Assembly (NCBI GenBank): GCA_030599585.1
Contig: JAUVNS010000004.1
Coordinates: 224,001-288,000, forward strand
From: Promethearchaeota archaeon
Lineage (GTDB): Archaea; Asgardarchaeota; Lokiarchaeia; Sigyniarchaeales; SOKP01
DNA: 64,000 nt
Direction of reading: 5' to 3'
Shown one piece after another: positions 26,579 to 35,701 of the stretch; the stretch's first letter is position 1; each line of letters opens with the position of its first letter. The position numbers and the translations under genes were made by a program. A model generated the notes under the pieces. It saw nothing but the letters and a program-made list of their open reading frames with translations. It did not search any database and was not told where the DNA came from.

Positions 26579-27484
26579 CTATTTTATAAACATCGTACCT
26601 ATTCCATGTGGAGTAAAAATTTCAAGCAATAAACTATGCTCTACTCGTCCATCGATAATATGGACTGTATTCACCCCATTTTGTATTGCTTCTACGCAAC
26701 ATTTTACTTTAGGAATCATTCCATTAGTGATAATCCCATCCCCTATATAGGATAACGCTTGATCGACATTCATCTCTGAAATTAGCGTTGTATGATCATT
26801 TATATTACTAAATACGCCAGATACATCTGTTAGGAAGACCAATTTTTCAGCATTTAATGATTTTGAAATTGCAGATGCTACATCATCGGCATTGATATTA
26901 TATGTGTTGCCTAAATTATCCTTGCCAATAGGAGCAATCACAGGAATTATGGAATTTTTTAATATATCTTTTAAAAGGCTAGTTTTTACATTTATAACCT
27001 CACCAACGAAACCCAAATCTTTTCCTTCAATTATCTTTTTCTTAGCATCCAATAAATCCCCATCTTTTCCACATAATCCTAAAGCATCTACACCTTGAAG
27101 TTGAATGTCGTTAACAATCCCTTTGTTAACACTACCTGCTAATACCATCTCTACAACTTCCATGGTTTCTTCATCAGTAATTCTAAGTCCGTTGAAAAAT
27201 TTTGGTTCGATACTCAGTTTTTTTAGCATTTTGTTGATTGAATGTCCACCTCCGTGTACTACTATAACATTAATACCAACTAAATTCATGAAAGCAATGT
27301 CTTCAACAAAAGTCTTCTTTAATTCAGCGTTTTTCATTGCACTCCCTCCATATTTTATTATTATCGTTTTTCCAGAAAATTTTTTAATAAACTGGAGTGC
27401 CTCAACTAAAATTTTTACCTGCTCTGTTTTTTCAATAATAATAAATACCTCCTTATGATCTATAATCACCATTAATTCGTACAT
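26579..27484 (-). CDS. argB: acetylglutamate kinase (start codon uncertain; possibly ATT at 27442/27439/27436)
   Basis: KYGGSAM, VHGGG, GLRITD, YNINAD, LTDV, GMIPK, LLLEIFT..GIGTM. Confidence 0.95.
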   Translation of the reverse strand: MYELMVIIDHKEVFIIIEKTEQVKILVEALQFIKKFSGKTIIIKYGGSAMKNAELKKTFVEDIAFMNLVGINVIVVHGGGHSINKMLKKLSIEPKFFNGLRITDEETMEVVEMVLAGSVNKGIVNDIQLQGVDALGLCGKDGDLLDAKKKIIEGKDLGFVGEVINVKTSLLKDILKNSIIPVIAPIGKDNLGNTYNINADDVASAISKSLNAEKLVFLTDVSGVFSNINDHTTLISEMNVDQALSYIGDGIITNGMIPKVKCCVEAIQNGVNTVHIIDGRVEHSLLLEIFTPHGIGTMFIK

Positions 27485-28694
27485 ATTCGTAGCTTAAATC
27501 ACAGCCCCATGCGGTTGCTTCACCAGTACCCTCCTTCAAAAGTAATTCAACTGTAATTTCATTTTCTTTCAAAATTTTTAATGCTAATTCTTCATCAAAT
27601 TGTAGAGGTGTTCCTTCTTGCATGAGCATAATCGAATGAGCACCATTATGAAAATTGATTGAAACTCCTGTAGGATTAAAATTTGCTCCAGAATATCCCA
27701 TGGCTGCTAGAATTCTACCCCAATTAGCATCTTCTCCAAAAAAAGCTGTTTTTACTAAATTTGAAGTAATAACTGATTTGCTCAAGAGTCTAGCATCTTT
27801 TTTTGATGCGGCACCTGAAACTTTTACCTCAATAAATTTCTTAGCACCTTCTCCATCTTTTACAATTTCTTGGGCTAAAAAAAGATTAACTAAATGAAGA
27901 GCTTTCTTAAATAAATAATATTCCTCATTTTCTTCCTTAATTTCTGTATTTCCCCCACATCCATTAGCTAATAGAAGCACTAAGTCATTTGTACTTGTAT
28001 CACCATCTACAGAGATCATATTATATGAGTCATCGACACTTTTTTTCAGAGCTTTATTTAATAACTCTCTTGAAATGTTGATATCCGTAGTAATGAAGGA
28101 AAGCATAGTTGCCATATTGGGATGAATCATTCCAGAACCTTTAGCCATACCTCCAATTCTGACTTTCTTATCGTCGATAGAAAACTCAACTGAAATTTGT
28201 TTTGGATAAGTATCAGTGGTCATAATTGCTTGGGCAGCCAAAAATGCGTCTGAAGTTGTATTTCCCAATTTTTCGTATGTATTATTAATTCCTGCAACTA
28301 TAGTATCAATTGGGAGCGGAACTCCAATTATTCCAGTAGATGCTACCAGAACCTGATTTTTATCTACCCCCAAACAAAATGCTAACTGATTTGCTATTGT
28401 TTCTGTATGTTTAGCCCCAACTTCCCCTGTACAAGCATTTGCATTTCCACTATTAATAACAATTGCTTTTACTCCATTTGGATTTTGAATAAGGTTCTGA
28501 TTCCATAAAATTGAGGACGCTTTAACTACATTCGTCGTAAAAACGCCAACTGCCTTAGCCGGAACTTCACTAAATATCAAAGCTAAGTCTTTTTTGCGCT
28601 CTTTAATTCCAATATGGCTACCAGTAGCACGATATCCCTTTGGACTTGTAATACTTCCACTTAATTTCTTTATACCTGTGTTGTTTATTTCCAT
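27453..28694 (-). CDS. argJ: ornithine acetyltransferase / N-acetylglutamate synthase
   Basis: NSGNANACTG, ASTGIIG, KGSGMIHPNMATML, DGDTSTND, DGEGA, WGCDLSYEYVRINGDYRS. Confidence 0.97.
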   Translation of the reverse strand: MEINNTGIKKLSGSITSPKGYRATGSHIGIKERKKDLALIFSEVPAKAVGVFTTNVVKASSILWNQNLIQNPNGVKAIVINSGNANACTGEVGAKHTETIANQLAFCLGVDKNQVLVASTGIIGVPLPIDTIVAGINNTYEKLGNTTSDAFLAAQAIMTTDTYPKQISVEFSIDDKKVRIGGMAKGSGMIHPNMATMLSFITTDINISRELLNKALKKSVDDSYNMISVDGDTSTNDLVLLLANGCGGNTEIKEENEEYYLFKKALHLVNLFLAQEIVKDGEGAKKFIEVKVSGAASKKDARLLSKSVITSNLVKTAFFGEDANWGRILAAMGYSGANFNPTGVSINFHNGAHSIMLMQEGTPLQFDEELALKILKENEITVELLLKEGTGEATAWGCDLSYEYVRINGDYRS

Positions 28695-28736: not shown

Positions 28737-28799
28737 AAAAAAATAATAAATTAGAAGAAGTGAAGAAAGAAGAATATCTCCTCAATTCTTATTATTATT
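28737..28799 (-). terminator. putative attenuator/terminator: imperfect stem-loop with pyrimidine-rich tract followed by U7
   Basis: Minus strand AATAATAAGAATTGAGGAG...TTCTTCTAATTTATTATT followed by a T7 run (28743-28737); lies between the leader stop codon and argJ. Confidence 0.5.
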
Positions 28800-28805
28800 A
28801 TAGAA

Positions 28806-28901
28806 TTAAAGCCGGAGCCGTGCCGGTCTGGGATTGTGCGGTGCTTCTAGAAATTGTATACTTACAATTTCATTATTCAAATGAGGATCAAGTGAGATCA
28901 A
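28806..28901 (-). CDS. putative arginine leader peptide (uORF) MISLDPHLNNEIVSIQFLEAPHNPRPARLRL
   Basis: TTG start 9 nt after GGTG; ends CCC AGA CCG GCA CGG CTC CGG CTT TAA; upstream of argJ; not in the ORF track. Confidence 0.55.
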   Translation of the reverse strand: MISLDPHLNNEIVSIQFLEAPHNPRPARLRL

Positions 28902-28949
28902 CCTTCATAACACCAACGCAATATTATTATTAGTATATAGAAGTGAGGC

Positions 28950-28957
28950 TATATAAA
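28950..28957 (-). promoter_or_regulatory. TATA box for the arg leader / argJBDCG
   Basis: TTTATATA on the minus strand about 50 nt upstream of the leader start. Confidence 0.5.
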
Positions 28958-29044: not shown

Positions 29045-30529
29045 TCAGGAGATAAGATTCTTAATTGTTTTTTTCCTAAGAATGGTAGCTTTTCTTATCA
29101 TTTCTAGTCTTTTCAAAAACAAATTGTGTAATTTTTCTTTATTATTTATTAATTTTTGAATGTTAAGTCTGACTTCTTTCTCAGCTGGAGAACCTTGACT
29201 AATTCTTCTTTCTAAACAAAGATCTAATTTTCTTAAGGTTTGAATTATGTTATCTGATATTTTTATTTCCTCATTTATTACATCTAAGATACATTTCTCA
29301 ATTTTTTCTTTATTTAACATATCTTCTGGTTTTTCTGAATTTTTTACTAAAAGTGCGACAATTTTATGTGATTGTCTAAAAGGGATGTTATAATTTTGAA
29401 CTAATAATTCTGCTAAATCTAATGCCAAAATGAAACTCTCATTAACAGCCTTTCTCAAATTTTCTTTATTAATTGATATAGTTGAAAATATTCCCGTAAA
29501 CATTTCAATTATCGAAAGAAGTAACTCGAATGAACTTTCTAATAATGGTTTCAAATCTTGAAAATCTCTAAAATATCCTGTTGGAATTGATTTAACGACC
29601 ATTACGGCATTAAATAGGTTTGATGTAATTTTAGAACTCTTACTCCTAATTAATTCCAGTGTATCGGGATTTTTCTTTTGAGGCATAACACTTGAAACTG
29701 AACAATACGCATTATCTAACTCAATAAAGTTAAATTCGCTTGTAGACCAAATAATCAGATCTTCTGCTATTCTTGAAAAATGAATTGCTAATGAGGAAAG
29801 TCCCATTAAAGTTTCGTATATATAATCTCGCGAGCTAACAGCATCAATAGAATTATAAACAATTCCATTAAAACCTAATAGTTCTGCGGTTCGAAGCCTA
29901 TCGATGCTAATACTTGTTCCTCCAATAGCACATGCTCCAAGAGGGTTCTTATTAACTCTTTTATAAATTTCTTCTATTCTTTCAAGAGATCTTAAAATTT
30001 GTGCAAGATAATTATTGATATAATGTGAAAATACTCCTAGCTGCCCCTTTTGCAGATGAGTATATAATGGCATGTATGTATCAATGTTTTTCTTAGAAAC
30101 ATCAAGTAAAACTTCAATTAATGTGAATAATTCTTTAGTGATATTATTTAATTCCTTTCTTATTTTTAATCTTAAATCAACTGAGATTTGATCATTTCTC
30201 GATCTACCTGTGTGTATTTTTCCGCCTATTTCAATACCAATTTTATCAATAACGCTCTGTTCTATAAAAGGATGAATATCTTCAAAATCTTCGTTTAATT
30301 CAATCTGATTCGTTAATATTTTTTCTCTTATCTCTTCAAGGGAAGTTAAGATCTTTTTGATTTCAATTTTATTAAGCAAATTTTGTTCAAAAAGCATAAT
30401 ATCATGCACTTCCGTTCCTATAATATCTTCTTCAGCAATCCATAAATCCTCTTTTAAAGATGAAATAAACTTCAAGGCTTTTTTATCAAGCGGAATATCT
30501 AATCTTGTTCTAAATAAATTTTTAGGCAT
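29045..30529 (-). CDS. argH: argininosuccinate lyase
   Basis: EDIH, HTGRSRNDQ, YTHLQ, SSVMPQKKNPD, PFRQSH. Confidence 0.95.
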   Translation of the reverse strand: MPKNLFRTRLDIPLDKKALKFISSLKEDLWIAEEDIIGTEVHDIMLFEQNLLNKIEIKKILTSLEEIREKILTNQIELNEDFEDIHPFIEQSVIDKIGIEIGGKIHTGRSRNDQISVDLRLKIRKELNNITKELFTLIEVLLDVSKKNIDTYMPLYTHLQKGQLGVFSHYINNYLAQILRSLERIEEIYKRVNKNPLGACAIGGTSISIDRLRTAELLGFNGIVYNSIDAVSSRDYIYETLMGLSSLAIHFSRIAEDLIIWSTSEFNFIELDNAYCSVSSVMPQKKNPDTLELIRSKSSKITSNLFNAVMVVKSIPTGYFRDFQDLKPLLESSFELLLSIIEMFTGIFSTISINKENLRKAVNESFILALDLAELLVQNYNIPFRQSHKIVALLVKNSEKPEDMLNKEKIEKCILDVINEEIKISDNIIQTLRKLDLCLERRISQGSPAEKEVRLNIQKLINNKEKLHNLFLKRLEMIRKATILRKKTIKNLIS

Positions 30530-33667: not shown

Positions 33668-35278
33668 TCACCATGTAGTTTCTCTTTTCAATAGTTTAAA
33701 AATATAAGAATCAACAAGTGCGTTCCACGATGCTACAATGATATTCTCATGTGTTCCAACTGTGCCCCATAATTTTCCGTTATCATTCGTTTCAACTAAT
33801 ACTCTCACTTTTGAGGCACTTCCTGCTTTATTAATTATTCTAACTTTAAAATCAGAAAGATTTATTTCTTTTATACTTGGATAAAAGTGAACTAATGCCT
33901 TTTTAAGAGCATTGTCTAGCGCATTTACTGGACCATTTCCGTCAGCAGCAGTATGATATTCTTGACCTTTAACTTTTACTTTAATAGTTGCTTCAGATAT
34001 TAAATTTGTTTTATACATTTCAGTAAGTACTCGAAATCCTTCTAACTCAAAAAATTTCTTCCTATAATAATCCGGATCTTGAATATTCATATCCATACTT
34101 CTCATAATAATTTCTAAGGAACCTTCTGCACCCTCATAAACATATCCTTCTTTCTCTTTTTGTTTGATTACTTCTAAAATTTCAGCAACTTTTGGATTCT
34201 CCTCCGTTAAATGCATACCAAATTTCTTAGACATGTGCAATATTGAACTTTTACCCGCTAATTCTGAAATCTTTATATTTCGAGAGTTTCCTACCAATTC
34301 GGGATTTATTTGTTCGTATGTTTTTAAGTTTTTACGCATAGCTGAGATATGAACACCTCCTTTATGCGAAAAAGCGTTTTTTCCTACAAAAGGTTGATTG
34401 CTATTTCCCGACAGATTGGCCATTTCGTAAATGAAGTGCGAAACTTCAGTGATATTTTCTAAATCTTCGCTAGATATGCAATCAATCCCCATTTTTAATT
34501 TCAGAATTGGCAAAATTGTTGTTAAATCAGTATTACCACATCTTTCACCAAAACCATTTATCGTACCTTGAATCATTTTAGCACCATGGTGAAAAGCCTC
34601 TAAAGCAATAGCGTTCGCAACACCAGAATCATTATGAGCATGAATTCCTAAATGAGCATCCGTTCCTAAAAAATCTTTTACTTTATCAAATATTAGACCT
34701 AATTCGGTTGGTAAAAGACCACCGTTAGTATCACATAGAACTATCCATGATGCACCTGCATTAAGAGCACAAGAAATTGTCTGTAAAGCATATTGTTCAT
34801 TATTTTTAAACCCATCGAAGAAGTGCTCAGCATCATATACGACCTCAATTCCATTTTTCTTTAAAAAGATAATTGTATCTTCAATCATGTTAAGATTTTC
34901 TTTTAAACTAGTCTCTAAGGCGACCTTAACATGCAAATCCCAGCTCTTCCCAAAAATTGTGGCATGTTTTGTGCCAACGGTCAATAAAGATTTCAAGTTT
35001 TTGTCATCTTCAGCCTTAATATCCTTATGTCTGGTGCTCCCAAAAGAAAAAATCTTCGTCCCATTTGAATTAATATCCATGGTTTTAATCTTATTATAAA
35101 GCATAATGTCTTTTGGATTGGAACCGGGCCACCCAACTTCAATCATAGGAACATGAAGATCGTTAATTAACCGTTCGATAATTCGAATTTTATCCTCGAC
35201 TGAAAAGCTAATTCCTATTTTTTGACTTCCCTCACGAAGGGTTGCATCATATATGTAAACACCATTATTTTTGATCAA
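33668..35278 (-). CDS. cimA: citramalate synthase (bacterial LeuA/CimA-type, with regulatory domain)
   Basis: DATLREGSQ, GWPGSNPKD, FGKSWDLHV, YDAEHFFDG, HAHND, GERCGN, GNGPVNALD. Likely start is TTG 35278, 8 nt after GGTGA; the track gives 35317. Confidence 0.85.
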   Translation of the reverse strand: MIKNNGVYIYDATLREGSQKIGISFSVEDKIRIIERLINDLHVPMIEVGWPGSNPKDIMLYNKIKTMDINSNGTKIFSFGSTRHKDIKAEDDKNLKSLLTVGTKHATIFGKSWDLHVKVALETSLKENLNMIEDTIIFLKKNGIEVVYDAEHFFDGFKNNEQYALQTISCALNAGASWIVLCDTNGGLLPTELGLIFDKVKDFLGTDAHLGIHAHNDSGVANAIALEAFHHGAKMIQGTINGFGERCGNTDLTTILPILKLKMGIDCISSEDLENITEVSHFIYEMANLSGNSNQPFVGKNAFSHKGGVHISAMRKNLKTYEQINPELVGNSRNIKISELAGKSSILHMSKKFGMHLTEENPKVAEILEVIKQKEKEGYVYEGAEGSLEIIMRSMDMNIQDPDYYRKKFFELEGFRVLTEMYKTNLISEATIKVKVKGQEYHTAADGNGPVNALDNALKKALVHFYPSIKEINLSDFKVRIINKAGSASKVRVLVETNDNGKLWGTVGTHENIIVASWNALVDSYIFKLLKRETTW

Positions 35279-35302
35279 TACTTTTTTCACCAATGAATGA
35301 AA

Positions 35303-35370
35303 CATTAAGAAATTCAAACCCAGAAAAGATAAGAAAAGGATGGTAAAAAAGAGTTTAAAATTTCTTAATG
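35303..35370 (-). promoter_or_regulatory. long stem-loop between leader stop codon and cimA RBS, enclosing a U/C-rich tract
   Basis: Perfect 12-bp inverted repeat CATTAAGAAATT (35303-35314 / 35359-35370), extendable by AAAC/GTTT; loop contains TCTTTTTTACCATCCTTTTCTTATCTTTTCT. Confidence 0.6.
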
Positions 35371-35373
35371 AAA

Positions 35374-35481
35374 TTAAATAATCCCAATAATAATTAATAA
35401 AATACTAATACCTACTAGCGGAATTAATCTTAATCTCATAATTAGAATAAAAAAAACCCGATGCTTTAAAACCTTTATCAT
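35374..35481 (-). CDS. putative Ile/Leu leader peptide MIKVLKHRVFFILIMRLRLIPLVGISILLIIIGII
   Basis: Last 21 codons contain 8 Ile (all ATT), 5 Leu and 1 Val; upstream of cimA; ATG 35481 lies about 24 nt after TTTATATA (alternative ATGs at 35490 and 35439). Confidence 0.55.
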   Translation of the reverse strand: MIKVLKHRVFFILIMRLRLIPLVGISILLIIIGII

Positions 35482-35504
35482 TGGGAGCATAAAATTAAAT
35501 TTTC

Positions 35505-35512
35505 TATATAAA
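35505..35512 (-). promoter_or_regulatory. TATA box for the leader / cimA
   Basis: TTTATATA on the minus strand, spacing compatible with a leaderless start at 35481. Confidence 0.5.
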
Positions 35513-35701
35513 TCTGAGTCGTATGAGGGTAAAGGATCAGCGACTAATATTCCCATGTTGTCAACTTGCCTTTTATTATTTTAAATTGTCTGATTTATTC
35601 ATCTATCAATCGATAATTTTATTAATCCCCTATAGAAATATTTCATAATCAAAAATTAAACAAAAAATCAATACAAAATTTTTAAAAATAATTAAGACGA
35701 G

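Follow-up and report, generated by a model that had tools for sequence, protein, structure and literature searches.

Does the short open reading frame (ORF) in front of argJ in this Promethearchaeota genome act as an arginine-sensing leader of the arginine biosynthesis operon? The window, i.e. the whole 64,000-nt stretch analysed here, belongs to a genome of 4.85 Mb with 33% GC in 52 contigs, 100% complete by markers. The genes argH and argJ are 350 nt apart; the ORF lies between them, and 111 nt separate its stop from the argJ ATG (28694). From the comparisons described below, we conclude that the ORF is very probably translated and senses Arg.

The leader ORF and its arginine codons

The first-pass annotation had described a TTG-initiated ORF on the minus strand with all three Arg codons among its last seven. 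The ORF is present with the translation given there, and its Arg codons are 25, 28 and 30 (Table 1). Relatives do not share the alternative start at TTG 28880 (codon 8), which was rejected. The triplet directly before the TTG (28902-28904, minus strand) reads AGG here and ATG in two relatives (G031 and G034), and differs in the others; because of this variation we took the TTG as the common start. The G+C content of positions 28811-28850 is 27 of 40, as claimed, and an equally GC-rich 40-mer was found in just 13 of the 1223 genome spacers of 150-600 nt. The expected rarity of CGG was borne out by the computed genome codon usage, in which CGG has the lowest share of all Arg codons, 5.2%. The leader peptide had no match in Pfam. 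At least three Arg residues in the last seven codons also occur in 11 of 2657 small intergenic ORFs of the genome, so the single ORF is suggestive at most, and it is conservation that lifts the leader above chance.

Table 1. Coordinates of the argJ leader, its RNA elements, the flanking genes and further amino-acid leaders. Positions are those of the window unless a contig label (C) precedes them.
Feature	Position	Strand	Remarks
Leader ORF	28901-28806	minus	31 codons, TTG start, TAA stop; 3 relatives have ATG in its place
Regulatory Arg codons 25 (AGA), 28 (CGG), 30 (CGG)	28812..28829	minus	mostly kept in relatives
TATA box TTTATATA	28950..28957	minus	archaeal; 56 nt upstream of leader start
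SD-lock helix, 5' arm	28909..28921	minus	contains leader SD core GGTG (28914-28911)
Anti-SD arm CACC, codons 20-21	28834..28845	minus	pairs with the leader's own SD
Internal hairpin, codons 11-18	28850..28871	minus	88% of cells paired; dispensable
Stem Y, 5' arm, A-rich	28777..28800	minus	begins 5 nt past stop
U/C-rich loop, stem Y 3' arm and T7 run (28743-28737)	28737..28775	minus	candidate archaeal termination/aCPSF1 signal (putative function)
argJ	27453..28694	minus	first gene of argJ-argB-argD-argC-argG, operon to 22921; all five over NCBIfam cut-off
argH	29045..30529	minus	TIGR00838 over cut-off; upstream of leader promoter
Ile/Leu-rich leader ending IIGII	35374-35556	minus	before cimA (33668-35317); followed by a stem with U/C-rich loop
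Leu leader, leuA	C24:120101-120202	plus	genome scan
Leu leader, leuS	C21:128778-128885	minus	genome scan
Ile leader, ileS	C28:118556-118639	plus	genome scan
His leader, hisIE	C26:136166-136276	minus	genome scan

Conservation across argJ loci

A homologous leader was located upstream of argJ in 18 distinct Promethearchaeota (Loki) loci with ArgJ identity of 58-100%. The loci were collected via ArgJ, except two that were retrieved with an SD-plus-hairpin pattern containing no Arg codons; the sequences are related and do not represent independent samples. A Shine-Dalgarno (SD) core GGTG precedes the start by 8-9 nt in all 18 loci, with TTG as the start in 15 and ATG in 3. The leader has 31 codons in 14 loci, 30 in two, 27 in one (L224, owing to a 12-nt in-frame deletion) and 35 in one, where a 4-nt insertion downstream of the Arg run has shifted the stop. 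Alignment of the argJ upstream regions, proposed in the first-pass annotation, revealed that the Arg codons are retained and that indels upstream of the Arg cluster are all in frame, whereas the flanks have indels of other lengths.

Arg is encoded at codon 28 in 18/18 loci, at codon 30 in 15/18, at codon 25 in 14/18 and at codon 29 in 13/18; the leader of this genome has one Arg fewer than most relatives. Among these 18 related leaders, Arg accounts for 65 of the 144 last-eight codons (45%) versus 13 of 409 (3%) elsewhere. The idea that CGG serves as a specific sensor did not hold, as codon 28 is spelled CGT in 9 loci, CGG in 7, CGC in 1 and AGG in 1, and the tails of most relatives end CGT-CGC-CGT. 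Together, CGT, CGC and CGG make up 72% of the tail Arg codons compared to 21% genome-wide, which suggests that minority CGN codons are favoured and that CGG is not special.

In bacteria, ArgR is the usual regulator of arg operons. A search for it (PF01316), whose control was positive in 9 of 14 genomes, did not find it in this genome; this, along with the start, frame and Arg cluster kept in the 18 loci, agrees with the earlier suggestion of an Arg-codon leader in place of ArgR control. In a rough check, the 400 nt ahead of the argS, argF and carA matches contained no Arg-tailed ORF. Four remoter argJ loci (45-64% identity) had no homologous leader, and two of them have argJ behind a co-directional gene. 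In two distant Promethearchaeota argJ loci, L004 and L226, unrelated ORFs of 23-24 codons with two to three Arg near the end lie 188 and 165 nt upstream, respectively; these are possibly independent Arg leaders. A pattern scan of metagenomes gave mostly chance matches: 3 of 120 stretches stood ahead of argJ, all three Arg-tailed and one a duplicate of a known leader. A further scan of contigs returned bacterial argJ loci only, and its Arg-tail filter mostly caught off-frame upstream DNA, so it was uninformative on origin.

Promoter and RNA anatomy of the leader

A TATA-like octamer is located 53-63 nt upstream of the leader in 13 of 18 loci, and from the usual archaeal spacing, transcription is predicted to start near 28925. 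This places argH upstream of the leader promoter and probably outside leader control; since several relatives have argH behind a divergent gene, argH would have its own promoter and escape the leader. The 3' end of 16S rRNA, GGAUCACCUCCU, is present in the genome, and the genome-wide spacing of GGTG has its maximum at 5-11 nt.

The leader SD is predicted to pair with an anti-SD strand within the ORF, with a pairing probability of 0.97-1.00 in 18/18 loci; 87% of cells in this helix are paired, and both sides have changed in 4 of 12 pairs. The 5' arm of the internal hairpin is missing in L224, whose 12-nt deletion removed four codons. Stem Y begins 0-8 nt past the stop across loci; its A-rich and U/C-rich arms enclose a U-rich loop, and the two leaders that diverge most retain the stem with a different sequence. 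Taken together, the SD lock, the hairpin and Y were 86.5% paired, both partners having changed in 12 pairs, a level reached in 0 of 500 shuffles and compared to 41-58% in slid controls, although the helix model was derived from the same sequences as were scored, so that these values give support and not proof. The leaders average 14.6 U in tracts of four or more U, versus 6.5 at ordinary gene ends.

A further helix, X, in which the 5' arm of Y would pair with the last codon and the stop, was 81% paired, and its covariation was not above that of shuffles (97-347 of 500); it is possible that X locks the OFF state after release. The Rfam search of the leader returned chance matches only (best E-value 2.8), the stability of the whole folded leader was unremarkable (z -0.89), and no canonical bacterial terminator (GC-rich hairpin and U-run) was called in the leader. 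Comparison across the loci establishes, at the level of sequence and predicted pairing, a conserved SD-led and Arg-tailed ORF, an SD/anti-SD helix and a stop-proximal stem Y.

The first-pass annotation had set conserved RNA structure against coding, but the leader element is both, as attenuators are. A purely non-coding element (a riboswitch, a protein-binding RNA or an operator) with an incidental ORF would account for the almost fully paired SD of the naked RNA, for a synonymous divergence lower than that of argJ, and for a start that is mostly TTG. Such an element would hardly explain the exchange of TTG and ATG at a fixed distance from the SD, the in-frame deletion, the synonymous first-position change at codon 28, or the matching Leu, Ile and His leaders before their own pathways; moreover, Rfam gave no match below an E-value of 2.8. 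We regard this explanation as very improbable.

It had also been suggested that the Pro/Arg-rich tail resembles a nascent-chain arrest peptide. In that case, as with fungal AAP or SpeFL, the peptide inside the exit tunnel would respond to free Arg or ornithine. The almost constant length (30-31 codons in 16 of 18 loci), the recurrence of F17, A/T20 and P21, and a pN of 0.23 that is slightly below the pS of 0.32 (eight loci) are compatible with this proposal. Nevertheless, the conserved residues fall on RNA helices: Ala-Pro is conserved because GCA CC is the anti-SD strand, and the Glu-Ile-Val...Gln-Phe block because codons 11-18 form the RNA hairpin that is deleted in frame in L224, which lacks four central codons. 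The non-Arg residues of the tail vary, its prolines included, and pN in the leader exceeds that of argJ (mostly 0.13-0.15). In addition, arrest at high Arg would position the ribosome as starvation does; under the same switch, a biosynthetic operon would then respond in the wrong direction. The peptide-arrest proposal appears weak, and we consider it highly unlikely.

Other amino-acid leaders in the genome

The 2657 small upstream ORFs of the genome were ranked by tail enrichment in a single residue, blind to gene function. A Leu-rich ORF before leuA ranked 1st, His before hisIE 6th, Leu before leuS 8th, Ile before cimA 17th and Ile before ileS 40th, whereas the Arg leader ranked 182nd; most of the remaining top ranks look like noise. 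By eye, SD/anti-SD pairing is also present in the leuA, ileS and His leaders. Comparison with relatives gave an Ile leader at 26 of 28 cimA loci and a His leader at 13 of 13 His loci; behind each lies a stem that begins close to the stop. The true start of the cimA leader is probably an inner ATG, judging by the 18-24 codons in relatives.

When a ribosome covering 10 nt was moved in the model from three codons upstream to the stop, the folding cost was 3.0 (Arg), 4.3 (Ile) and 9.0 kcal/mol (His), compared to 1.25 kcal/mol at ordinary gene ends. The His leaders have a second hairpin that holds the SD. They have few U-tracts, so the output proposed below may not be common to all leaders.

Two further ORFs were observed in the genome. 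On contig C11, a 24-codon ORF with three Trp in its last 13 codons lies ~ 151 nt before position 165274 (plus strand), and the gene behind it looks like trpB2 by its N-terminus. An 18-codon ORF with four tandem Cys codons (C22:170037-170093, plus strand) lies 165 nt before a MeaB/ArgK GTPase-like gene; it overlaps another frame and may be due to chance.

Proposed mechanism

An operon for biosynthesis is expected to be ON while the ribosome is stalled. Archaeal RNA polymerase needs no hairpin to terminate at a U-tract, and such tracts are bound by aCPSF1 (PMC8116511, PMC13675443); for this reason, we read stem Y as an antiterminator. Our preferred model, which we hold with modest confidence, is a ribosome-mediated Arg attenuator in which Y passes the signal to archaeal termination. 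The first ribosome would load before the anti-SD is transcribed. At low Arg-tRNA, it would stall at codons 28-30, leaving the 5' arm of Y free; Y would form fully and hide the U-tract, and RNA polymerase would read through into argJBDCG. With ample Arg, the ribosome would reach the stop and cover the base of Y, the U-rich arm would open, and transcription would end there, either intrinsically or via aCPSF1/FttA. The SD lock would then prevent reloading and restrict the leader to the first ribosome. The aCPSF1/FttA family is encoded in this genome (over cut-off), and a Lokiarchaeota aCPSF1 ortholog complements in M. maripaludis (PMC13675443).

In the folding model with a 10-nt ribosome cover and the transcript cut at the U-tract, the unpaired fraction of the U-rich arm rose from 0.40 for a ribosome on the first Arg of the tail to 0.62 for one at the stop, and it was higher in 17 of 18 loci, although blocking more bases lowers pairing by construction. 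With a 7-nt cover, the change was from 0.38 to 0.49, so the modelled switch depends on the footprint. When downstream RNA was included, the effect shrank, and for this genome it reversed. Y is also preferred in ribosome-free RNA, and the OFF state would therefore require a well-timed ribosome at the stop. We must also note that the U-rich loop remains single-stranded even within Y.

The opposite polarity, in which stem Y and the T7 run act as a bacterial-type terminator whose formation is prevented by the stalled ribosome, is in line with the T7 run lying directly behind the full stem in this genome and with the report that archaeal termination can be strengthened by hairpins (PMC13675443). 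A ribosome stalled at codons 28-30, however, stops short of the 5' arm, and Y then forms as well as it does in free RNA. No canonical terminator was called, the antiterminator that this polarity requires (helix X) lacks covariation support, and one locus (L221) has no T-run behind the stem. We judge this polarity improbable.

The same Arg-sensing leader could also act on translation or mRNA stability. Depending on where the ribosome stands, the U/C-rich arm would pair within Y, would pair with purine-rich RNA close to the beginning of argJ, or would be cut by a nuclease. In many loci, the U-tract refolds with downstream purine-rich RNA when the ribosome is at the stop; in the most divergent locus (L005), this hairpin covers a GGTG 9 nt before a TTG in the argJ frame; and the His leaders, with their SD-containing second hairpin and few U-tracts, fit this output as well, as does Salmonella orf34, in which two Arg codons control mRNA decay (PMC6386406). 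In the main clade, however, the hairpin is ~ 30-55 nt ahead of the argJ ATG, a distance at which it could not mask the argJ SD, and its A-U pairing is weak and of a kind that often arises by chance in DNA of 33% GC. Translational control of argJ only would not obviously regulate five genes either. We consider a translational or decay output rather unlikely.

Comparison with known systems

In the bacterial leader-peptide attenuators trpL, hisL, thrL, leuL, ilvL and pheL, cognate codons lie towards the end of a short upstream ORF, the RNA can adopt alternative helices, and expression is ON upon starvation. The leaders described here are alike in having late cognate codons in a short ORF before a biosynthetic operon or a synthetase. 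The Asgard leader differs in its TATA promoter, the long A/U stem starting from the stop, the SD lock inside the ORF and the sensing of Arg, and it has neither a terminator made of a GC-rich hairpin and U-run nor any Rfam similarity. Because it lacks the classical terminator, we do not place the Arg leader in the trpL/hisL family, even though its coding features agree with that family. In the trp operon of Methanothermobacter, which is controlled by the TrpY repressor, a role was proposed for one Trp codon of trpY; the layout is different.

Fungal uORFs of the AAP type (CPA1/arg-2) place Arg supply genes under Arg control, as is reported for the TgApiAT1 uORF of Toxoplasma (PMC8370653). Such uORFs work through the sequence of their peptide, and the ribosomes affected are scanning eukaryotic ones. 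Arg control of Arg supply would be common to these uORFs and the Asgard leader, which conserves Arg codons and RNA pairing instead.

The nearest Arg-codon precedent is the speF leader orf34/SpeFL of Salmonella, with ~34 codons including consecutive Arg codons, where pausing selects the RNA fold and low Arg raises expression (PMC6386406). In enterobacteria, orf34 is linked to factor-dependent termination, and its target, ornithine decarboxylase, is regulated by way of Rho and RNase G (PMC6386406). We liken the two by description, and the Asgard peptide itself has no Pfam match. With aCPSF1 (FttA) termination (PMC8116511, PMC13675443), the leader shares U-rich tracts past the stop, and the factor is encoded here; aCPSF1/U-tract termination has been described for transcript ends, whereas a regulated switch within a leader is what we infer.

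Implications

On comparative sequence grounds, we regard this Asgard leader, with its conserved Arg codons and attenuator-like RNA, as real. No description of amino-acid leader-peptide attenuation in archaea, or in Asgard archaea, was found in the literature searched, with most subscription journals lying outside the search, and the word "attenuation" is absent from the reviews PMC8116511 and PMC13675443. More tentatively, Promethearchaeota may use codon-sensing leaders genome-wide (for Arg, His, Leu, Ile and probably Trp), in which a ribosome on the stop-proximal stem would gate the access of aCPSF1/FttA to a U-tract; we hold this as a conjecture that is somewhat less likely than not. If true, attenuation would be wired to archaeal termination through a homologue of eukaryotic CPSF73, and the leaders would be evidence for transcription-translation coupling in the archaea closest to eukaryotes. 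Both this coupling and the competition between ribosome and aCPSF1 are still speculative in PMC8116511. If the output is transcriptional, the leaders need a ribosome that tracks RNA polymerase, which would make them a sequence-defined test of coupling; ribosome-aCPSF1 competition would also be testable, in tractable archaea without culturing Asgards. An Arg biosynthesis operon under Arg codons and not ArgR would be a prokaryotic counterpart of eukaryotic amino-acid uORFs, in the lineage nearest to eukaryotes.

Regarding the tRNAs that would read these codons, ARAGORN called only 17-21 tRNAs, one of them for Arg (UCG) and several with introns at unusual positions; most tRNA genes are probably interrupted and so missed by the program. 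As for the operon itself, ArgJ is patchily distributed: of the 161 genomes in the class, 12 have it. Among named relatives, those with 71-89% ArgJ identity carry the label Promethearchaeota or a Candidatus name, and the next-best matches are bacterial (Melainabacteria, Defluviitalea, 62-66%), which suggests that argJ may have been acquired by transfer from bacteria.
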